DNA from: an uncultured Planctomycetaceae bacterium
GTDB taxonomy: Bacteria > Planctomycetota > Planctomycetia > Planctomycetales > Planctomycetaceae
NCBI GenBank assembly: GCA_963813715.1
Contig: CAWFAK010000007.1
Coordinates: forward strand, 864,001-928,000
Length of the DNA: 64,000 bases
Reading direction: 5' to 3'
In this document: positions 49,119 to 58,234 of the stretch, piece by piece
How the letters are laid out: each line of letters starts with the position of its first letter
Numbering within the stretch: the stretch's first letter is position 1
Translations under genes and position numbers: made by a program
The notes under the pieces: model-generated
The model's database searches: none
What the model was told of the DNA's origin: nothing
Seen by the model: the letters and a program-made list of their open reading frames with translations, nothing else

Positions 49119-50228
49119 TCACAGCAGGTTTACGATGCGATCCGTCAGGCCCTTCTCGCCGACAACGACATTCAGCTTGCCGCTGCCGGCGATCTTTTCC
49201 AGAACTTCCAGCTCACGCAGCCGCATGAGCGTCGGGTTGTCCGCCAGCAGCTTGGCCGTGTTGGCCTGGCTGCGGATGGCGGCCGTCTCTTCGCGGCGGG
49301 CGATGAGGTTGGCCTCGGCGGCCTTCTTGGCCTCCGTCACCTTGTTCATCAGGTCCTTCATGTCGCCCGGCAGGATCACATCCCGGATGCCCACCGACGC
49401 GATTTCCAGACCCAACTCGCCCGCCCGACGGCGCACGCTCTCCTCGACGTCCCGCGCCACGGCGTCCTTGTCCGTGAGGAAGTTGTCGAGCTCGCGCGCA
49501 CCGATCACGCTCCGCAGCACCAGCTGCGTCTCGCGATAGAGCGCCTGACGCACGTCGTCCGTCTGGCTGACGGCCTGCCGTGCGTCGACGACCTTGTAGG
49601 TCACCACGGCATTCAGCCGCAGCGTGACCTTGTCGGCCGTCATGATCTCCTGACCGCCGACGTCGACCATCGTCTCGCGCAGGTCGACCTCGACCACGAG
49701 GGCCTCGGCCGGACCCTTCCAGAAGGCGTACTCGCCCGGCGCCAGCGTCTCGACATAGCGGCCGTCGACGAAGAGCACGCCCGCGCAGTCGCGCTTCACC
49801 GTGCACACGTCCAGGTACCGCTGCGCCCTCGCCGAGCGGACGATCGCCTTGAACTGGTCGTGCTCGAAGCGAACGTGCCGCGCGTCGAGCACCTCGACGT
49901 CGACCCGCTTCTGGCCCTTCCAGTACGCGTACTGGCCGCCGGCCAGCACGTGGGCGAAGCGACCCTCGATCCACACGAGAGCCCGCTCGTAGTCCTTGAG
50001 GTCGAGCACCACGGCGCGGTCGCCGAGCGCACCCGACTTCACGATCAGGTCGAGCTTCTCGTGCGAGAGCCACGTCGCCCGCCGCGACACGACGTCGACC
50101 GCCACCTTGCGGAGCGGGTCGATGAACCAGTGCGTACCCTGCTCGAGCACGCGGCGGAACTCGCCGTCGCGGAAGTAGAGACCCATCTCGTAGCTGCGGA
50201 TCTTGTAACGCTTGAAGACGAACATCAT
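49119..50228 (-). CDS. Slipin-family SPFH/band-7 protein
   Basis: GGAGGT RBS; repeated GL.F.DG....L..G...FW modules; QEIMTADKVTLRLNA, GIRDVILPG, NPTLMRLRELE. Confidence 0.92.
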   Translation of the reverse strand: MMFVFKRYKIRSYEMGLYFRDGEFRRVLEQGTHWFIDPLRKVAVDVVSRRATWLSHEKLDLIVKSGALGDRAVVLDLKDYERALVWIEGRFAHVLAGGQYAYWKGQKRVDVEVLDARHVRFEHDQFKAIVRSARAQRYLDVCTVKRDCAGVLFVDGRYVETLAPGEYAFWKGPAEALVVEVDLRETMVDVGGQEIMTADKVTLRLNAVVTYKVVDARQAVSQTDDVRQALYRETQLVLRSVIGARELDNFLTDKDAVARDVEESVRRRAGELGLEIASVGIRDVILPGDMKDLMNKVTEAKKAAEANLIARREETAAIRSQANTAKLLADNPTLMRLRELEVLEKIAGSGKLNVVVGEKGLTDRIVNLL

Positions 50229-50339
50229 CCACCTCCTTCCCGGAGGATTTCTGAACGAGCTAACCAAGTCAGCTCGCTGAACTTCAGCTGCGAGCGCGCT
50301 CTGCGTAAGGTTCAAGACCACTGACGAAACGAACAGGAG

Positions 50340-50717
50340 AATAAAGACGCCGTCAGAGGGAAAAACGTTCGCCGATCACACGCAAAAACGCGGAAGGCGT
50401 TTGAGCCGCGGGCTCGCTGGGCGTCGACGCGTCTCGAGAATCGCCTTCGTTCGACGGCGTGCCGTCGAACCCTCAGCGATTCCGTCCCCGCGCCGTTGCC
50501 GAACGAGCGTCACGGCGGAATCCGCGCCCTACAGGGCGTGTTTACGTGTTGCCCAGACACGCCCGGACCCGTTGCCGAAGCACCGCTTTCGCGATCCTCG
50601 GCGGTTTCCGGCACGTGACTGAAGCCGATCGAACGAGCGTTTTCCCTCCTCGGGCGTTGCGGCGCGGTCTTGCGACCGCGTCGTCTCGGTTTCGAGCTCG
50701 GTTAACAGCCGAGTGCT
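50340..50717 (-). ncRNA. Candidate large structured non-coding RNA between the tRNA array and slipin
   Basis: No convincing ORF; hairpins capped by GCAA, GAAA and TTCG; long-range helix 50634-50648 with 50356-50371; Asn-like anticodon stem-loop at 50697-50713. Confidence 0.55.
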
Positions 50718-50794
50718 TGGTGCTTGGTGCGGGAGTCGAACCCGCGACAGCCAGACCTTAAATCTGGTGCTCTTCCGACTGAGCTAACCGAAGT
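50718..50794 (-). tRNA. tRNA-Leu(TAA)-like, short variable loop, CCA encoded
   Basis: CCAGA-ttTAAgg-TCTGG; GCGGG-TTCGACT-CCCGC; bulged acceptor stem. Confidence 0.7.
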
Positions 50795-50899
50795 TGGTGA
50801 CGGCCGTTTTAGAACCCATGTCCGGAACACACGAACCTGATCCACGAGACCGCGTGCCAGTCTCGGGAGGCCCTTGCGCCGCTGGACGGGCCGACACCA
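50795..50899 (-). ncRNA. Candidate ~105-nt structured RNA (Y-RNA-like closed stem)
   Basis: 5' TGGTGTCGGCC pairs with 3' GGCCGTCACCA; internal hairpin CGAGAC/GTCTCG. Confidence 0.4.
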
Positions 50900-50918
50900 C
50901 CGAAGCAAGCCTGAAAAG

Positions 50919-50990
50919 AAACGCCGGTGGGAGTCGAACCCACTACAAGCCGCTTTGCAGGCGGCCGCCCTACCGTCTGGCTCCGGCGTT
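50919..50990 (-). tRNA. tRNA-Cys(GCA)
   Basis: GCCGC-ctGCAaa-GCGGC; U73. Confidence 0.88.
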
Positions 50991-51015
50991 AGATGCGTTT
51001 CAAAGATCTCAAAAA

Positions 51016-51087
51016 TGTCCTCGCCAGGATTCGGACCTGGTCCTCGACCTTCGCAGAGTCGCGTGCGATCCACCACACTCCGAGGAC
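51016..51087 (-). tRNA. tRNA-Arg(GCG)
   Basis: CGACT-ctGCGaa-GGTCG; variant T-loop TCCGAAT. Confidence 0.82.
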
Positions 51088-51108
51088 GTTGCGCACTTGT
51101 CGTGCGAG

Positions 51109-51179
51109 TACCCCGCCGAGGATTCGAACCTCGTCTGGCAGCTTCGAACACTGCCGTGCGTCCACCACACTCGCAGGGC
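51109..51179 (-). tRNA. tRNA-Arg(TCG)
   Basis: GCAGT-gtTCGaa-GCTGC; T-loop TTCGAAT. Confidence 0.85.
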
Positions 51180-51259
51180 AATTCGTAGAACTCGCATTGA
51201 AGAAAACGAAGCACCCGACGGCTCACGCCGTCGGCTCGCCGGGTCTCCTCGCGCTTTCA

Positions 51260-51331
51260 TGTCTCGACCTGGATTCGAACCAGGACCAGGACCTTCGGAG
51301 GGTCCGATGCGATCCGTTACACCATCGAGAC
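51260..51331 (-). tRNA. tRNA-Arg(CCG)
   Basis: GGACC-ctCCGaa-GGTCC. Confidence 0.9.
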
Positions 51332-51362
51332 GCTGTCGCCAAAATCTTCCAAAAGAACGCAG

Positions 51363-51436
51363 AGCCGACGGCTGGATTCGCACCAGCATCATCCTGTTTA
51401 CAAGACAGGCGCCTTTCTGTTTCGAGCCACGTCGGC
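51363..51436 (-). tRNA. tRNA-Thr(TGT)
   Basis: CCTGT-ctTGTaa-ACAGG; variant T-loop TGCGAAT. Confidence 0.85.
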
Positions 51437-51454
51437 ACTCAAACGATCGATCAA

Positions 51455-51526
51455 GCACGAACGCGAGGATTTGAACCCCGTCGGGCGGTTTTGGAGGCCG
51501 CCGGCTCTCCCAGGAGCACGCTCGTG
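51455..51526 (-). tRNA. tRNA-Trp(CCA)
   Basis: GCGGC-ctCCAaa-ACCGC; T-loop TTCAAAT. Confidence 0.78.
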
Positions 51527-51555
51527 TAAAGCCACGACCGGCGCGGACGGTTCCG

Positions 51556-51627
51556 GGAGGGCGAAGCTCCTGCTGAGCCAGCATTCTTCTGCAAGCAAAG
51601 CAGAGGTCGGCGGGAGCCTCGCCCTCC
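51556..51627. repeat. REP-like inverted repeat
   Basis: GGAGGGCGAAGCTCCTGCTGAGCC ... GGTCGGCGGGAGCCTCGCCCTCC. Confidence 0.75.
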
Positions 51628-51635
51628 AGGAACAA

Positions 51636-52232
51636 TCAACTCTCCAGCGGGACGTTCCAATACGCCTCGCTGATGAACTTCGACCAGCTCATCATCCGCT
51701 CGCTCGTCCGTGCGTAGAGCGGCTTCCAGGCCGGTCGCACCGGCTCCCGATGCAGCTTCATCCGTGCCTGCGCCGGCGTGCGGTCGGCCTTGTGCTTGTT
51801 GCAGTCGATGCACGCCAGCACGCAGTTCTCCCACGTCGAGACGCCCCCTTGCGAACGCGGCACAACGTGGTCGATCGTCAGCTCGGCTCCGCCCGGCTGA
51901 CGGCCGCAGTACTGGCACGTCCAATGATCGCGCTTGTGGATGTTCCGCCGGCTGAAGGCGACCGCGGCCGTCGGCAGCCGGTTGTACTCCGCCAGCACGA
52001 TCACCTCCGGCACGCGCAGCGTCGACCGCACGCACTGGATGAAGTCGTCACCGTCGGCCGGCCGCAGCCGCGACCAGTCGGCCCACGTGTAGAGCCGAAA
52101 ATCGCGCGGATCGACGACGCGGGCCGCCTCGTTCCACAACAGCACCAGCGCCCGGGCGACCGTCGCCACGTTCACGGGCTGCCAGTTGCGATTGAGGACC
52201 AGCGCCGGCCGCTGGAGCGTTCGCGTCGTCAT
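51636..52232 (-). CDS. HNH endonuclease (McrA-like, zinc-binding) embedded in the tRNA array
   Basis: LVLNRNWQP; FSRRNIHKRDHWTCQYCG...TIDHVVPRSQGG..TWENCVLACIDCNKHK; GGAGG RBS. Confidence 0.93.
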   Translation of the reverse strand: MTTRTLQRPALVLNRNWQPVNVATVARALVLLWNEAARVVDPRDFRLYTWADWSRLRPADGDDFIQCVRSTLRVPEVIVLAEYNRLPTAAVAFSRRNIHKRDHWTCQYCGRQPGGAELTIDHVVPRSQGGVSTWENCVLACIDCNKHKADRTPAQARMKLHREPVRPAWKPLYARTSERMMSWSKFISEAYWNVPLES

Positions 52233-52256
52233 GATTTTGTTCCTCCGCGAAAACAG

Positions 52257-52330
52257 GGTGCCCAGGGGGAGTTGAACCCACCCCTTCGACGTTCACAGCG
52301 TCGCGTGCAAACCGTTACACCACGGGCACC
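52257..52330 (-). tRNA. tRNA-His(GTG)
   Basis: CGACG-ctGTGaa-CGTCG; G-1:C73. Confidence 0.9.
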
Positions 52331-52419
52331 ATCCAATGGACCGTCCAAGGGACGGCTGGTGCCTCCGGCAGGGAAGTGCCCGCTGTCCTTCTGTCACACT
52401 TGTTGTTTGATAGGCAATT

Positions 52420-52491
52420 TGCCTCGACCAGGATTTGAACCCAGAACTCCTTGTTAGAAGCAAGGAATGATTTCCGTTTCACCATCGAGGC
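52420..52491 (-). tRNA. tRNA-Arg(TCT)
   Basis: CCTTG-ctTCTaa-CAAGG. Confidence 0.9.
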
Positions 52492-52507
52492 CCGTGGCTC
52501 GATCGAG

Positions 52508-52594
52508 CGGAAGGCAAGGGAATTGAACCCTCATCCGCACTCGGCGGAACCGCCTTAGCAGAGCGGCCCGGCCAACCGTATCCGGCTACCTTCC
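52508..52594 (-). tRNA. tRNA-Ser(GCT)
   Basis: CCGCT-ctGCTaa-GGCGG; long variable arm; G73. Confidence 0.88.
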
Positions 52595-52663
52595 GTATTT
52601 TTGTCCTTCTTGTTTCTGTACTGCCTTATTTCTGTACCTGCGGGCACCGTCCGAGGCTTCGAA

Positions 52664-52734
52664 TGGACCGCCGGGGAATCGAACCCCGATTTCCTGGTTG
52701 CAAGCCAGGCGTCTTCCCGTTTGACGAGCAGCCC
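52664..52734 (-). tRNA. tRNA-Ala(TGC)
   Basis: CCTGG-ctTGCaa-CCAGG; G3:U70. Confidence 0.92.
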
Positions 52735-52743
52735 GGGTTGGAG

Positions 52744-52850
52744 AGTCCAAAGTCCAAGGTCCAACGTCCAAAGTCGGAAAGACAAAAAGACCGCGGCCGC
52801 CGTCGTCTCTTGTTTTCTGACCTTGCTTTGGACTTTGGACTTCTGGACCT
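52744..52850. repeat. Inverted heptamer tandem repeats
   Basis: (nGTCCAA)x4, then (TTTGGAC)x2-3 in the opposite orientation. Confidence 0.75.
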
Positions 52851-52866
52851 TCGCCATTAGGCGAAT

Positions 52867-52942
52867 TGACCGAGGTGGGAGTCGAACCCACAAAGTCACG
52901 GCGCTCTCGACACCGCCGCTTTGCCGGTTTGCGTACTCGGCC
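52867..52942 (-). tRNA. tRNA-Leu(GAG)-like, short variable region, C33
   Basis: CGGTG-tcGAGag-CGCCG; D-arm nearly identical to array tRNA-Leu(CAA); A73. Confidence 0.72.
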
Positions 52943-52972
52943 GTTTTTGCACTATCTCCTTCGTTCGATCAG

Positions 52973-53041
52973 TAGCAGGTCCGGGTGTCGCACCCGGCCG
53001 GTGGAGCTTATGAGGCCCCACTGGGCACTGGCCCCCCTGCG
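52973..53041 (-). tRNA. tRNA(CAT), Met (possibly initiator) or Ile2, with a minimal D-arm
   Basis: GGGGC-ctCATaa-GCTCC; C1/T72 mismatch; D-arm GGGC-cagt-GCCC; T-loop TGCGACA. Confidence 0.65.
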
Positions 53042-53089
53042 TCATCGCGTCAAATAACGCTGCGTGATTCGACGATTCGTTGTTTGAAG

Positions 53090-53172
53090 TGACCAAGGGG
53101 AGAGTCGAACTCCCACGCCCGCGGGGCACGACATTCTGAGTGTCGCGTGTCTGCCAGTTCCACCACTTGGTC
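53090..53172 (-). tRNA. tRNA-Leu(CAG)
   Basis: CGACA-ctCAGaa-TGTCG; long variable arm. Confidence 0.92.
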
Positions 53173-53237
53173 GTTGTCGCATGTTCTCGGCGAGCGTGGT
53201 CGGTTCGTCGATTCGGTTCTGATTGCCTCGATGAAAG

Positions 53238-53310
53238 CGACCCGTGCGGGAGTCGAACCCGCCTTTGCGGCTTGAGGGGCCGCCGTCCTATGCCAATAGA
53301 CGAACGGGCC
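53238..53310 (-). tRNA. tRNA-Glu(CTC), C33
   Basis: GCGGC-ccCTCaa-GCCGC. Confidence 0.87.
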
Positions 53311-53340
53311 GAATTGTTCGTCGCATTTCCAATTGACGAG

Positions 53341-53422
53341 TGCGTCGGGCAGGAGTCGAACCTGCAATGCCATCAGGCGGGTGGTTTACAGTCACTGGGG
53401 CACGCCAATGCCCAGCCGACGC
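53341..53422 (-). tRNA. tRNA-Tyr(GTA)
   Basis: Loop ctGTAaa; long variable arm; T-loop TTCGACT. Confidence 0.85.
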
Positions 53423-53440
53423 GTATTTGTTCTCTCGAAG

Positions 53441-53515
53441 TGGCACGAGTGGGAGTCGAACCCACAGACCACGAAGGTTTGAGCTTCGCCGCTTTGCCAG
53501 TTTGCGTACCGTGCC
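53441..53515 (-). tRNA. tRNA-Leu(CAA)-like, short variable region
   Basis: CGAAG-ctCAAac-CTTCG; variable region TGGTCT; A73. Confidence 0.8.
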
Positions 53516-53534
53516 CTCTCGCGATTTCTCGAAG

Positions 53535-53609
53535 CGTCTCCGATGGGATTCGAACCCACGATCTCCACCGTGACAGGGTGGCGGGGACGGCCAACTCCCC
53601 TACGAAGAC
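53535..53609 (-). tRNA. tRNA-Asp(GTC)
   Basis: CCACC-ctGTCac-GGTGG; G73. Confidence 0.92.
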
Positions 53610-53687
53610 CGGCGTTGCCGGCTTGTGCCTCCGGCAGGCAGACGAAGGACCGCAGGGTTATGCTTGCGGTTCGCCTCAATTCTTCAG

Positions 53688-53759
53688 TAATCCCGGATGG
53701 ACTCGAACCATCGTTGCCTGGGTGTAGGCCAGGAGTCGTTGCCGCTGGACCACGGGATC
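53688..53759 (-). tRNA. tRNA-Val(TAC), C33
   Basis: CCTGG-ccTACac-CCAGG. Confidence 0.87.
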
Positions 53760-53833
53760 TTTTTGTTCTGAACGCGTTGTGCGAATTGGACGGCTCCCGA
53801 TGGTCGCCTTTCTTCGTGTAGTGCGATTAGCAG

Positions 53834-53919
53834 CGGAAGCCGTGGGACTCGAACCCACAATTCGCGCACGGCGAACACCTGTTTTCGGGACAGGCCCCTC
53901 ATCCGGCCGGATGACTTCC
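53834..53919 (-). tRNA. tRNA-Ser(CGA), C33
   Basis: CCTGT-ccCGAaa-ACAGG; long variable arm; G73. Confidence 0.85.
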
Positions 53920-53945
53920 GTGAGATACGAACTTAGCTTTTCCAG

Positions 53946-54021
53946 TTGCGGGGGCTGGAATCGAACCAGCGGCCTCCAGGTTCAGAGCCTGGCGTCACGT
54001 ACCAGCAGCAACTGCCCCGCA
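53946..54021 (-). tRNA. tRNA-Gln(CTG)
   Basis: CCAGG-ctCTGaa-CCTGG; U1-A72. Confidence 0.87.
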
Positions 54022-54066
54022 GCGTGTTTTGCCCTCTTATTAACGAGCGTCCGTCGGTGAAAACTG

Positions 54067-54137
54067 TTCGGGGAGAAGGATTCGAACCTTCATCACCTGC
54101 TTCAAAGGCAGGCAGCCTACCGTTAGCCGATCCCCGA
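54067..54137 (-). tRNA. tRNA-Gln(TTG)
   Basis: CCTGC-ctTTGaa-GCAGG; U1-A72. Confidence 0.9.
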
Positions 54138-54166
54138 GCACGCGCGCTTTCAAATTCCATCCACAA

Positions 54167-54238
54167 AGTGCCCTGCGGGAGTTGAACCCGCCTCGCCGGC
54201 TTGGAAGGCCGGCACCTTTGCCGCTCGGCCAAGGGCAC
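54167..54238 (-). tRNA. tRNA-Gly(TCC)
   Basis: CCGGC-ctTCCaa-GCCGG; U73. Confidence 0.92.
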
Positions 54239-54258
54239 AGTCGTTTCAATTTCTCAGG

Positions 54259-54345
54259 CGGAAGCCGTGGGACTCGAACCCACAAGCGAGTGGTTGCTCG
54301 CCTCCTGTTTTCAAGACAGGACCCTCATCCGGCCGGATGGCTTCC
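54259..54345 (-). tRNA. tRNA-Ser(TGA)
   Basis: CCTGT-ctTGAaa-ACAGG; long variable arm. Confidence 0.87.
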
Positions 54346-54372
54346 GTGAGACAACAAATTTTCGACAGACAG

Positions 54373-54447
54373 CTGCGGCGGCAGGAATCGAACCTGCGTC
54401 GGGATGATTAACAGTCACCTGCCCGTACCAACACGGGCCCCACCGCA
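54373..54447 (-). tRNA. tRNA-Asn(GTT)
   Basis: GGTGA-ctGTTaa-TCATC; G73. Confidence 0.87.
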
Positions 54448-54509
54448 ATGCGACTTCTTCTTCCTCCGGAGAACCGGCGGGCTAACACCCGCGCGCTCGC
54501 CTGCGAAAG

Positions 54510-54580
54510 AGCACCCAGCGGGAGTCGAACCCGCACTTCCGCCCTGGCAAGGCAGCAGGCTGCCGCTACATCATGGGTGC
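54510..54580 (-). tRNA. tRNA-Gly(GCC)
   Basis: CTGCC-ttGCCag-GGCGG; U73. Confidence 0.88.
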
Positions 54581-54712
54581 GTTTTTTTGTCCTGGTCGAG
54601 TTGTCAAAGAACCATGCACACGGAACGGTCGTCCGCGCAAATTCAAACGCGACGGCCGAAGGGCCGTGCCGAATAACCACGGCGGCCAAAGGGGCCGCGA
54701 AAACTAACGCAG

Positions 54713-54784
54713 AGCACAGGGTGGGACTCGAACCCACGTTTCCGCATTACGGGTGCGGAGTCCTCGCCGCTGAACGACCCGTGC
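54713..54784 (-). tRNA. tRNA-Thr(CGT), C33
   Basis: CCGCA-ccCGTaa-TGCGG. Confidence 0.87.
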
Positions 54785-54831
54785 TTGCCGTTGTCGAACT
54801 GTCGCCGTCAAACTCGTCGTCATCTCATCAG

Positions 54832-54904
54832 TGGGACCAGAGGGACTTGAACCCTCACCGACCTGGTTAAGAGCCAGGCATGCTGCCGCTAACACCTTGA
54901 TCCC
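54832..54904 (-). tRNA. tRNA-Lys(CTT)
   Basis: CCTGG-ctCTTaa-CCAGG. Confidence 0.9.
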
Positions 54905-54920
54905 GTGTGCGTTTCCGAAG

Positions 54921-54992
54921 TGGGGCCGGAGGGATTTGAACCCACGCCTCGCAGATTAAAAGTCTGCTGTGCTACCGTTACACCACGACCCC
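54921..54992 (-). tRNA. tRNA-Lys(TTT)
   Basis: GCAGA-ctTTTaa-TCTGC. Confidence 0.92.
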
Positions 54993-55066
54993 GCGTGTGG
55001 CCGTGGCTCTGTTTCTTCCGGTACCGTCGGGTCACTTTTTTATCTCCGAAAAAAAGCCCAAAAGAG

Positions 55067-55137
55067 TCGCTCGGGGTGGAGTCGAACCACCGTTTTCGCC
55101 TTATCAGAGCGACGTACTTCCGTTGCACTACCGAGCG
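55067..55137 (-). tRNA. tRNA-Ile(GAT)
   Basis: TCGCT-ctGATaa-GGCGA. Confidence 0.88.
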
Positions 55138-55159
55138 TGCTGCTCCTGCATTTCTTCAG

Positions 55160-55231
55160 TCGGGATGGCTGGAATCGAACCAGCTTCCACGTGTTCCCGA
55201 AACACGCGGGCGCCCGGAGCCCTTCATCCCG
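55160..55231 (-). tRNA. tRNA-Pro(CGG)
   Basis: CGTGT-ttCGGga-ACACG; C1-G72, A73. Confidence 0.87.
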
Positions 55232-55251
55232 TTCTTGTTTGTCTTCTCGAA

Positions 55252-55323
55252 TGACTCGTGCGGGATTTGAACCCGCGTCGCCGCCTTGAAAGGGCAGAAT
55301 CCTCACCGTTAGACGAACGAGCC
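55252..55323 (-). tRNA. tRNA-Glu(TTC)
   Basis: CTGCC-ctTTCaa-GGCGG. Confidence 0.9.
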
Positions 55324-55359
55324 TTTTCTTCGTGCATCAGCGCGCAAGCTGAGCGCAAG

Positions 55360-55431
55360 TGGGTCGGGAGGCGCTCGAATCCTCGTCCCCTGGTTTTCAG
55401 CCAGGCGCTAAACCGTCTCAGCTACCGACCC
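55360..55431 (-). tRNA. tRNA-Phe(GAA), first tRNA of the array
   Basis: CCTGG-ctGAAaa-CCAGG. Confidence 0.88.
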
Positions 55432-55491
55432 ATGGTCCGGCCGTGTCGTTCCGCACGTGTTGCCCGGCACGACGAAACAAAAGAGCCAAAC

Positions 55492-55523
55492 AAAAAAAGC
55501 CCGATGTCTTTGTGACACCGGGC
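55492..55523 (-). terminator. Intrinsic terminator in the leader, upstream of the first tRNA
   Basis: GCCCGGTGTC-acaaa-GACATCGGGC-TTTTTTT on the minus strand. Confidence 0.8.
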
Positions 55524-55560
55524 CGACGAGAGTCTTGCTCTCCACAGGGTTGGGCCAGCG

Positions 55561-55680
55561 TCACAAGTGCCGCGGATATGAAAACGGATTCCCACCGGGC
55601 AACGTCTTGGCAATTTGACGTCCCTGCTGGGCGGAATAACCCGCGGATATTTGCATCGAGCTGGGCCAGAGGCATGCCAT
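55561..55680 (-). CDS. Putative 39-aa leader peptide of the tRNA-array attenuator
   Basis: MACLWPSSMQISAGYSAQQGRQIAKTLPGGNPFSYPRHL*; GGAAAG about 10 nt upstream; the TGA stop lies within the antiterminator strand. Confidence 0.55.
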   Translation of the reverse strand: MACLWPSSMQISAGYSAQQGRQIAKTLPGGNPFSYPRHL

Positions 55681-55749
55681 GGAACGAGTGCTTTCCACTG
55701 CGTCGTTGATGTCGCGAATCGCAAAAACGTTTGCGACTCGTCTGCTCGC

Positions 55750-55777
55750 TTAGACGCGGCCGGAACACGGAAGGTTC
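55750..55777 (-). promoter_or_regulatory. Putative ECF-sigma promoter of the tRNA array
   Basis: GAACCTT-N15-GTCTAA (GAAC-N17-CGTC), preceded by an A-tract. Confidence 0.55.
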
Positions 55778-55875
55778 ACGGCGATTTCGAGAATTTTTTT
55801 ATTCGCCGGACCGAAGGGGGGGCTGCGTTGCCTTTCTCGCTCGTCGGGCGGACGAGGAGGATTGCGCGCGAAGCT

Positions 55876-58234
55876 TTAGTTCAGCCCCTTCTGCGCCTCG
55901 GCGTTCGAGGGGTCGATCGTCAGAACTTTCCGAAAGCAGTCCTTGGCCTGTTCGTCGCGGTCGAGTGATTTCAGCACCTGGCCGCGCAAGGTCAGCAGGT
56001 TGACCTGGTTCTTGAGCACATTCTCTCGCGTGGCCGGCATTCCCTTGGGGACCGCTTTTTGCCATTGGTCCGGGTGCTCGAGCAGGCGGGTCAGCATGGC
56101 GATGCCGACGCCCAGCTCGCGCTGTTCCTGCTCGCGTGCGTCGGGTGCGATTTCCACGTTGTTGATCTTGATGCCGTCGAGCCGATCCAGCACCTGGCTC
56201 AGAATCGCGTGCGAGCCGACGTCGTCGGGCGCGAGCCGCAGCCGCTGTAGCGTGAAGAAGTACGCCGCCACCGGATCGAGCGCGGCCAGCTTGATGCCTC
56301 CCTGCAGGTCGGCCGGCGTGTAGGGACGGGAGAAGCGATCGGCCAGGCCGACCTCCGCCTGGTTCACCTTGGAGATGCGTCGCCAGGCGACCTGGCGGGC
56401 GGCGTGCAGCTCCGCGCAGCCTGGATCGACCATCAGTCCCCGCTCGATCACGCGGTCGGCCAGTTGCTGATCGTAGAACACGGCTTCGACGTGCGCCCAA
56501 AGATAATAGACGCGCGGATCCATTGGCTCGAGCTTGAGCGCGAGATCCTCCACGGCCGCCACGCGCGGCGCGTCGTTGGTGCGAGTGAGCTGGTCCATGC
56601 GATCGGCAGCGGCCAGTTCGGCGGCCGTCGGCTGGCGGGTGTAGGTCGTCGTGGTGACTTCGACTTTTCCCCCGCCGATATTGCGCCGCGAGCTCGCCGA
56701 CCAGGTTTTCGGCAATCGCATGCGCTCGGCGCTCAGCAGGTTCTCGCTGCCGCGAACTCGGTTGTACTCCGCATAAATCATCAGTTGCAGCGGATCGGTC
56801 GGGTTGAGCGAATCCCCCTGCCCCAGCGCCGGGCCGTTCCCTCCGATCAGCCAGTTGAGCCGCGTGAGTTGCCGCTCGAACTCCAGGTCATTCTGCCCCA
56901 GTGCGCGGATCGCCTTGAGGGTGTCGCTCGCCCGCCGCAGATGCTTGGAAAAGACGTGCGTGTGCGGCGGGTCCTCCATTTTGTAGAGCCATTCGCCCGT
57001 CCGCAGGTTGAGCACCACGTGCGTCTGGTTGCGAGTGCCGAGCGCTTCCTTGGTGGTTTCGAACTGGCGATCGAACCAGAACTCACTCTTTCGGCCGTTG
57101 CCGATCTCGGTGACGACGGGGCTGGCGAGCGCCGTCTTTTTCTCGCGTTCGATCTCATCAACGAGCCGCTTGAAGAGGGCCACTTGCGGGCCGAGATCCT
57201 TCGGATCCTCTTTGACGGCCTGCTCGAGCGCCGCCAGCCCGCGGGTCGCGTCGTCGCGACGGACCGCTTCGACGCGCGTCCACCAGTCGGCCATCTTGTC
57301 GAGGGCCGTACGGATCTCGTCGTCGCTGCGGCCGTCGCGAACGAGGGCCCGCAAGCCGCGGCAAATGCTCTCCGACTTCTGCGCGACGGCCAGCTTGTCG
57401 AAGGTGCCGATCTGCTCGGCGGGCGAATCAAGCGGTATTTCTCCTTCGGGAAAGACAAACTCGCCGATGGGCGACGGCGGGATCAGTTTGTGGCGCGTGT
57501 AAATCTGCACACCGACAGCCGGCTCCCGCTTGGAGAGGGGCGCGCCGGTCGCCGCGTCGAGATATAAAAAAGTGCCGTAGGCCCGGTCGACGACGACGTC
57601 GCGATCGCGGACGGCCAGCATTCGCCAGACGACCTTGCCCTTGGGGGCGTGGGCCTCGGTGTCCGCCAGCTTGACGGGCAGGTGTCGCAGGACGCCGTAC
57701 AACGGATAGGACGTCGGCTCTTCGTTCGAGTTCACTGCGACGGGCGGCTCCGCACCGGGCCGCAGCAGCTGGACGTAAATTTGATCTTCGCGGACGGTGG
57801 GGGCCAGGTCCCACAGTCCGCGGACGGCTTCTTCAGGCGACAAGACACCGTCGGGCAGTGCTGCGGGTCTGGAGGAGGCGTCGAGCGCGTAGGGACTGTT
57901 GAACATCTTGCGGCCCTCGACTCGCACTTCGAGAGCCATCCCTTCGGCCTTCGGCGCGAAATACAAGAACCGTGCACCAACCGGTTCAAAGCGCGAGCGC
58001 GTGTAAGCGCCCCACAAATCGACGCGGAACAGCTTTGCGCCGGCATTCCAATTGACGGCAGCAGCGTTCGCCTGATTGCGAACCGCAGCAAACTCCTGCA
58101 GGCTGGCGGTGGGCTCGCCAGCGGACGGCGGCGACGGCGGCGATTGCTAACCTTGCAGTCGCAACCGCAAAGCCCAATGACAGCCAGGCGACGCGCAGGA
58201 AACGACGCGCCGCGAACCCGTGGCCCGTGTTCAT
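55876..58234 (-). CDS. Exported TPR-containing protein (frameshifted near the N-terminus)
   Basis: 713-aa ORF plus a signal-peptide-like segment from ATG 58234; C-terminal TPR LRGQVLKSLDRDEQAKDCFRKVLTIDPSNAEA. Confidence 0.7.

Follow-up and report, generated by a model that had tools for sequence, protein, structure and literature searches.

The 64,000-nucleotide stretch analysed here (the window), taken from the genome of an uncultured Planctomycetaceae bacterium (G000), carries on its minus strand an array of 32 tRNA genes (50718-55431) headed by a short leader, which we interpret, with a probability of about 0.6, as a ribosome-dependent leader-peptide transcription attenuator gating a redundant and divergent tRNA set. 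The original prediction, made from the window alone, had proposed an ECF-like promoter, a 39-codon reading frame using 17 amino acids with an ATA codon, and a terminator before the first tRNA, and direct reading finds all of them in place. In the direction of transcription, the locus begins with the promoter (55750-55779), composed of a -35 element GTGAACC (55779-55773), a 16-nt spacer and a -10 element CGTCTAA (55756-55750), which we take to be of the extracytoplasmic function (ECF) type from its likeness to the known consensus. Near the start of the leader transcript, in the 5' untranslated region (UTR), lies a hairpin of 11 bp (55715-55740) that is present in both the minimum free energy (MFE) and the centroid folds, and hairpins of differing sequence occupy the same position in homologues. 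The leader open reading frame (ORF) that follows (55561-55680; MACLWPSSMQISAGYSAQQGRQIAKTLPGGNPFSYPRHL) runs over 39 codons from an ATG at 55680 to a TGA at 55563-55561; among its 17 kinds of amino acid D, E and V are not used.

Two elements with a predicted part in RNA folding lie inside the ORF, namely region 1 (codons 6-10, 55651-55664), which pairs with the stop segment in the MFE fold and is a candidate anti-antiterminator, and P1 (55570-55646), a long multi-tier hairpin with the outer helix CCGCGGGT/ATCCGCGG and a candidate polymerase-pause or anti-antiterminator hairpin. The stop segment, region 2 (TTGTGACGCTGG, 55555-55566), contains the TGA and, from direct reading and duplex computation, would provide the 5' strand of an antiterminator. 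The leader closes with an intrinsic terminator (55492-55524) made of region 3, comprising the 5' arm and loop (55524-55509, with CCGGTGTCACAA at 55521-55510), region 4 or the 3' arm (55508-55499) and a tract of seven T (55498-55492). Its stem-loop (55524-55499) has a stem of 10-11 bp (11 pairs, seven of them G-C) and is the top-ranked terminator-like site within 50000-57000, an interval in which no sigma-70-like promoter site was found. The T-tract is separated by 60 nt from tRNA-Phe, the first gene of the array, which starts at 55431. No Rfam family matches the window leader at E≤1.

The array, delimited with ARAGORN, spans 4.7 kb and has one tRNA gene fewer than the 33 of the original prediction, none of them for Met, and 55 more tRNAs are dispersed over the genome. 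Array tRNAs are only 55-72% identical to the dispersed isoacceptors. A closed genome of the same genus (G003) has an array of 32 tRNAs and a complete dispersed set of 48, and every anticodon of its array is duplicated outside except Arg-GCG. These comparisons uphold the label of a backup set, and the array is probably a redundant second tRNA set without tRNA-Met. The tRNA-Arg(GCG) is carried by the array (window 50918-51331), and the dispersed set of G003 uses Arg(ACG).

Distribution and coding signatures of the leader

The stretch of the window from about 55798 to 55487 was recovered at 67-88% identity in six genomes of the same genus, and the terminator alone was also matched beyond it, in further genera. 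The first 19 loci share a common order of ECF-like motif, small ORF, TGA, GCCCGGTGTCAC, hairpin with T-tract and tRNA array, with a distance of 33-41 nt between the TGA and the GCCCGGTGTCAC of region 3. Of the 151 genomes of the family, 104 were matched at E≤1e-3 by a covariance model built on the 3' half of the leader, and many of these had several matches. At E≤1e-6 the model matched 20 of 35 genomes in family f1 and reached six further families of the class, with 11 of 19 genomes in f3, 2 of 35 in f4, 1 of 5 in f6, 1 of 2 in f9, 1 of 1 in f12 and 1 of 3 in f15; at this threshold none of the 30 genomes of family f5 was matched. The resulting set of homologues comprises 156 leaders from Planctomycetota genomes, 137 of them unique copies. 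Judged from these sequences, conservation across a bacterial class is supported for the succession of promoter, leader ORF, stop within the antiterminator, terminator and tRNA array.

An exact-pattern scan of 185,579 species genomes (one per species) returned at least 120 stretches, of which 80 were listed, against about 23 chance matches estimated beforehand from the pattern length and the size of the database. Among the 80 matches listed, 56 passed a filter for a hairpin plus T-tract, and these were all labelled Planctomycetota except for one 'Entotheonella' record. The records include Pirellulales, Planctomycetaceae, Thermoguttaceae, Schlesneria, Fuerstiella, Thalassoglobus neptunius KOR42 and Stieleria mannarensis JC639. 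Another 18 of the 80 listed matches, from other phyla, were discarded, being devoid of hairpin and of tRNAs and fitting chance. The same pattern had no match in viral contigs. The odd record (L193, titled Candidatus Entotheonella palauensis) holds a complete planctomycete-type leader followed by tRNA-Phe, Glu and Ile, and a binning or contamination issue, or else a transfer, is the likely cause of its non-planctomycete label.

Several genomes, G100, G079 and G145 among others, have up to 7-8 model matches each, from which it appears that some Planctomycetes carry several leader-headed tRNA blocks, with the reservation that some of the weaker multi-match cases cover the terminator part of the model only. 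A second class of leaders, represented by L039, L040, L048, L053, L063, L065, L069-L072, L079, L081 and L087, has ORFs of 52-74 codons that mostly end in P-L-R-T-TGA, and the promoter motif was not found within 345 nt upstream of these leaders.

The ORF bears several marks of a coding frame. Of the 156 copies, 152 have a TGA at the aligned position and 151 a C directly after it; the original prediction had named a stop position conserved despite divergence of the peptide among the observations on which its proposal would stand or fall, and the stop is indeed kept while the peptide diverges. The ORF frame is open over at least 30 codons in 131 of the 137 unique copies, compared with 62 and 69 for the other two frames. 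An ATG giving an ORF of 26-50 codons is available in 110 of 156 copies, its place is conserved, and the peptide starts with the motif M-x-[F/S]-[L/I]-R-[P/S]-S. At the other end, the peptide has the consensus [Y/H]-P-L-R-[L/T/M], in which the residues are conserved through synonymous codons: codon -4 is Pro in 84 of 133 copies and is written in all four ways (CCC 34, CCT 19, CCG 17, CCA 14), codon -3 is Leu in 111 of 133 and codon -2 is Arg in 121 of 133, each with five codons, and the synonymous variation of Leu and Arg falls immediately beyond the paired core. Across families the C-terminal consensus is wider and reads F-A-[G/D]-Q-[P/S]-A-N-..-P-..-P-L-R; the peptide of G000 itself ends in P-R-H-L and not in P-L-R-L. 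Among 17 independent close pairs, single-base codon changes were synonymous in 49 cases and nonsynonymous in 70, a synonymous share of 41% in the ORF frame versus 25% expected, the other frames giving 33% and 23%. Several coding signatures thus agree in suggesting that the leader ORF is a real coding frame.

NCBIfam holds models of leader and arrest peptides, and for six of the seven leader peptides compared with it no match was found, the seventh giving one spurious match (SepH, E=0.025); a search of Pfam with the leader peptides gave no family. The conserved P-L-R-[L/T] end and the UGA-C context that follows it hint that the ribosome is specifically held at the stop, in place of the sequence-blind sensor of translation failure that had been envisaged originally.

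The promoter motif, in the form [CT]GAAC[CT]-N15/16-CGTC[TA], lies upstream of 72 of the 137 unique leaders and on the opposite strand of none. A genome-wide search for GAACC-N16-19-CGTCT gave 77 matches where about 69 were expected, and since this is the chance level the search points to no regulon or cognate sigma factor. The leader is closely linked to tRNA genes: tRNAs on the same strand follow 89 of the 96 model matches that have at least 300 nt of downstream sequence and 116 of 123 unique copies. The first of them is tRNA-Phe in 72 of the 116, and the T-tract and the first tRNA lie a median of 32 nt apart, with 40 nt or less between them in 73. The sequence of this gap is not conserved. 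As a separate promoter could not be accommodated in so short a gap of such variable sequence, the arrays are most simply understood as being transcribed through the terminator. Seven model matches (L056, L084, L086, L108, L110, L112 and L113) have no tRNA within 500 nt downstream.

Two further features of the tRNA complement of G000 were recorded. The only large gap in the array contains an ORF of 198 aa for an HNH endonuclease (51636-52232, minus strand; Pfam PF01844, E=3.7e-15). Outside the window, a tRNA at G000:C8:182792-182863 (61.3 bits with the Rfam model) has the anticodon UUA, is called tRNA-Stop by ARAGORN and, on its sequence, is possibly ochre-suppressor-like.

Competing pairings at the stop codon

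The original prediction held that the stop-bearing segment is complementary to the 5' arm and loop of the terminator, and the complementarity of 55566-55555 was confirmed by computation, with a duplex energy (RNAduplex) of -23.3 kcal/mol in the window copy as compared with -21.6 kcal/mol for the two arms of the terminator together. Region 3 is common to both helices, which are therefore mutually exclusive as had been proposed, and the predicted fold switches with the presence of the 3' arm: RNA cut before this arm adopts the alternative helix (-26.9), and the complete local RNA adopts the terminator (-29.7).

Pairing statistics were computed on 100 copies aligned to the covariance model. The terminator helix is paired in 97.8% of 997 cells, and 24 cells have changed on both sides versus 5.1 in shuffles (0/500). 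For the helix between regions 2 and 3 (2:3; stop segment with 5' arm), 88.6% of 960 cells are paired as compared with 25-48% in slid controls, and 12 cells have changed on both sides versus 4.3 in shuffles (0/500). The GTGAC of region 2 is nearly invariant in these 100 homologues. Individual loci illustrate how the pairing is kept. In three genomes of the genus (G009, G006 and G003), region 3 has a C facing a G of region 2, even though this leaves the terminator with a C-A mismatch, and in G048 the terminator loop supplies GTCATAA as the complement of TTATGAC. Across the family, the 2:3 duplex has a mean energy of -20.0 kcal/mol versus -11.7 when shuffled, with 80 of 91 copies clearly better, and region 2 is predicted to pair with region 3 in 70 of 120 RNAs ending before region 4, versus 6 of 120 full leaders.

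P1, which takes up most of the ORF and had no place in the original prediction, is the best-supported structure after the terminator. The equivalent segment of homologues has a mean MFE of -24.3 kcal/mol and a mean z of -2.1, its stability surpassing that of at least 48 of 50 shuffles in 71 of 129 homologues, and its stems differ in sequence between loci and covary. In 106 of 120 homologues folded with regions 3 and 4 omitted, region 2 pairs upstream with the N-terminal codons, usually at a distance of 75-100 nt from the stop. The predicted folds of the window copy also contain a hairpin between regions 2 and 3 (GAGAG-CAAGA-CTCTC, 55528-55542), which we rejected as a feature of the family, as it is seen in G000 and is not consistent in homologues (family mean z -0.5). 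RNAalifold applied to 74 full-length leaders recovered the terminator alone, because the ORF part aligns poorly. A search of ten homologous loci against Rfam, T-box included, gave no match at E≤0.1. On these comparisons and folding models, the layout would match that of a classical 1:2/2:3/3:4 attenuator, with the 1:2 element less certain than the others. The TGA falls within region 2 in 152 of 156 aligned copies and, given the size of the ribosome footprint, the upstream strand of the antiterminator would, from geometry only, be covered once a ribosome has reached the end of the ORF.

Proposed mechanism and alternative explanations

Leader RNA occurs in nature. Soil metatranscriptome contigs with at least 99% identity to the leader were found in four runs of four studies; they cover the leader only, with one boundary at 55487, 55496 or 55554 and the other at 55727 or 55729, and three of them end in or just past the T-tract (55487-55496). 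No contig bridges the terminator into tRNA-Phe or covers the tRNAs, a result that is uninformative as tRNAs are poorly recovered in such libraries. The contigs hint, weakly, at expression and termination of the leader in nature. At window position 55623, three metatranscriptome runs have C>G on the plus strand, which changes leader codon 20 from Gly to Arg and restores the family consensus Q-Q-R-R.

In the mechanism that we favour, the ECF-type promoter would start a leader RNA of about 250 nt, and by default the transcript would end at the strong intrinsic terminator, 60 nt before tRNA-Phe. The UGA of the ORF lies within region 2, which is able to pair with region 3. A ribosome completing the ORF in time would sit on region 2 and leave regions 3 and 4 to pair, so that transcription stops; the P-L-R-[L/T] end and the weak UGA-C context may lengthen this occupancy. 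If the ribosome is late, region 2 would be free as region 3 emerges, the antiterminator would form and the polymerase would enter the 32 tRNA genes. Slow decoding, damaged or scarce tRNAs and inhibitors are possible causes of such lateness. P1, extended by the 1:2 pairing, would probably pause the polymerase and may sequester region 2 on untranslated RNA. Translation of the ORF, control of the fold by the ribosome and the inducing condition are the steps of this scheme that we infer.

Several observations weigh against this reading, some concerning the RNA and others the peptide or the tRNAs. The RNA data are assembled contigs, which cannot give ends, strand or level. A share of 0.13% of 3000 random 20-mers of the window pairs with the terminator arm as well as the stop segment does and, as some 200 upstream positions are available, the complementarity of the window copy is not significant alone; the significance of the pairing comes from its conservation across 156 loci and not from the single copy. 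The covariation of the 2:3 helix is itself modest: its strands are nearly invariant, the model to which the alignment was fitted derives from the terminator, and there is no control for relatedness, so that the 2:3 signal is best described as mainly conservation with some covariation. The 1:2 duplex averages -14.7 versus -11.1 in shuffles, with 38 of 91 copies clearly better than shuffles, and the models lend moderate support to the pairing of regions 1 and 2. The fold of the whole leader has a weak z (-1.1 to -1.6), a single-sequence fold not being evidence.

Base differences are spread evenly over the codon positions (75, 65 and 69), and the comparison suggests that the peptide as a whole is under weak constraint, only loosely kept and fast-evolving. 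The mid-ORF stretch F-A-[G/D]-Q-P-A-N coincides with the inner hairpin of P1, TTCGCCGG-TCAA-CCGGCGAA, whose stem covaries, and RNA structure could explain part of the conservation of the ORF. The invariant TGA, being part of the GTGAC/GTCAC pairing, could likewise be kept by RNA constraints alone. The ORF contains no regulatory codon run, and about 9 of its 39 codons (ATG twice, CCC twice, ATA, TCC twice and GCC twice) are not read by array anticodons, from which it follows that the leader is not codon-matched to the array. Lastly, neither ARAGORN nor the Rfam tRNA model found a tRNA-Cys(GCA), Arg(CCG) or Arg(UCU) outside the array in G000, an absence of housekeeping tRNAs that, if real, would forbid a silent array. 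A low-threshold ARAGORN search for a housekeeping tRNA-Cys gave noise only, and the Rfam model added no tRNA to the ARAGORN list. As G003 has all three tRNAs outside its array, the lack in G000 is probably an assembly gap.

Some of these points would be expected of an RNA switch that works without ribosomes, in which P1 and regions 2-4 are set by a protein, an (uncharged) tRNA or a small molecule and the frame is incidental or tolerated. P1 is well supported (mean z -2.1, 71 of 129) and its stems covary, some loci change the peptide yet keep the helix, the peptide evolves fast overall, and pairing alone could fix the TGA. We nevertheless consider such a switch unlikely, because it leaves unaccounted for a frame that is open in 131 of 137 copies as opposed to 62 and 69 in the other frames, the conserved place of the ATG with its N-terminal motif, a Pro at -4 spelled with all four codons, the synonymous variation of Leu and Arg outside the paired core and an excess of synonymous changes confined to frame 0; nor did Rfam, T-box included, match the leader or the ten homologous loci. 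A variant of the attenuator reading retains the ribosome and alters what it would report: an arrest at [Y/H]-P-L-R-[L/T] with UGA-C, modulated by the activity of release factor 2 (RF2) or by a ligand, would read termination and not the speed of elongation. UGA-C is a weak stop context, and TnaC and SpeFL are known to arrest at stops. In favour of this variant, the final residues of the peptide are conserved while their codons vary synonymously, 152 of 156 copies have TGA as the stop and 151 a C after it, and the wider C-terminal consensus is common to several families. Against it, TGA-C is demanded by the GTGAC/GTCAC pairing as well, the F-A-G-Q-P-A-N stretch overlaps the inner P1 hairpin, NCBIfam offers no real match among the seven peptides and the peptide of G000 ends in P-R-H-L, and we regard this variant as improbable.

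It could also be that two unrelated units adjoin each other, a gene for a small protein or small RNA with its own promoter and terminator and an array with a promoter of its own, the complementarity between them being fortuitous. The contigs do show a discrete, leader-sized RNA ending at the terminator, the complementarity of a single copy is not significant by itself and the z of the whole-leader fold is weak. This arrangement is very unlikely given that tRNAs lie downstream in 116 of 123 copies across many genera, with a median gap of 32 nt that is too short for a promoter and has no conserved sequence, that no sigma-70-like site is found within 50000-57000, that 88.6% of cells preserve the complementarity between regions 2 and 3, and that in the first 19 loci the stop keeps to a position 33-41 nt upstream of region 3. 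The attenuator reading may be extended to the class Planctomycetia in the form of an arrest-type leader peptide that gates spare arrays, in which the UGA-C hold within the antiterminator would read initiation, elongation and RF2-dependent release together and the second set would be deployed on failure of any of them, for example upon cleavage of tRNAs by an anticodon nuclease; we offer this broader proposal as a tentative and rather doubtful one.

Relation to known systems and significance

Leader-peptide attenuators are known for the trp, his, leu, thr, ilv and pheA operons. The planctomycete leader resembles attenuators of the trp/his type in having a leader ORF, an intrinsic terminator before the regulated genes and an antiterminator that shares a strand with the terminator, as well as a stop at the upstream strand of the antiterminator and a hairpin in the ORF as possible pause or anti-antiterminator element. 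It differs from them in its targets, which are tRNAs and not biosynthetic enzymes, in the lack of a run of codons for a single amino acid, in the conserved C-terminus of its peptide, in the ECF-type look of its promoter and in its host phylum, Planctomycetota. Ribosome-mediated attenuators that sense translation inhibitors precede resistance genes, as in the erm, cat, vmlR, lmo0919 and bmrCD leaders. With these it shares a leader ORF coupled to the choice between terminator and antiterminator and an expected signal of general translation stress; it is set apart from them by its tRNA array target, by a longer ORF (typically 31-45 codons) and by the stop codon, instead of an internal arrest site, taking part in the switch.

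The likeness to TnaC and SpeFL lies in a conserved C-terminal nascent chain at the stop, whose occupancy decides downstream termination. Those peptides block Rho, whereas the terminator here is intrinsic and occupancy would favour termination, and there is no sequence likeness to them (0 real NCBIfam matches). T-boxes (RF00230) also combine a terminator/antiterminator leader with tRNA biology; they regulate synthetase and amino-acid genes and are not translated, and Rfam found no match to them in the leader (E≤1 for the window leader, E≤0.1 for the ten loci). To our knowledge, the known targets of leader-peptide attenuation are genes of amino-acid biosynthesis and of drug resistance.

The closest counterpart in function is the trn operon (L-array) of Anabaena sp. 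PCC 7120, which, according to PMC8421152 and PMC10272220, is silent by default, repressed by TrcR and induced on impaired translation. The statement in the original prediction that a protein repressor, TrcR, controls the cyanobacterial array is correct by the account in PMC10272220. In these papers, TrcR is a ribbon-helix-helix repressor acting on direct repeats over the -10 box, that is, by control of initiation. L-arrays are reported in seven phyla, Planctomycetes included, in PMC8421152. Both systems have a long, redundant and divergent tRNA array beside a full dispersed set; they differ in the conserved control element, which is a leader ORF with a terminator in the arrays described here, and in the shape of the promoter, which is ECF-like here. 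PMC8421152 and PMC4758250 both mention arrays of Planctomycetes, and in neither does 'terminator', 'attenuat*' or 'leader' occur. In the main texts of open-access papers, we found no description of tRNA genes preceded by an attenuator or leader, nor of either element in Planctomycetes.

If the attenuator reading is true, the logic of classic attenuation controls tRNA genes, the very molecules on which the sensor itself depends. It would likewise mean that redundant tRNA arrays are silenced by an RNA- and ribosome-based device, a counterpart in another phylum to the protein repressor of cyanobacteria. The family is tractable: it has well over 100 members, its stop position is fixed, the end of the peptide is conserved and a hairpin covaries, and it is present in cultured strains. 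The leader marks spare tRNA sets in the genomes of Planctomycetota and is a candidate for a natural reporter of translation stress.

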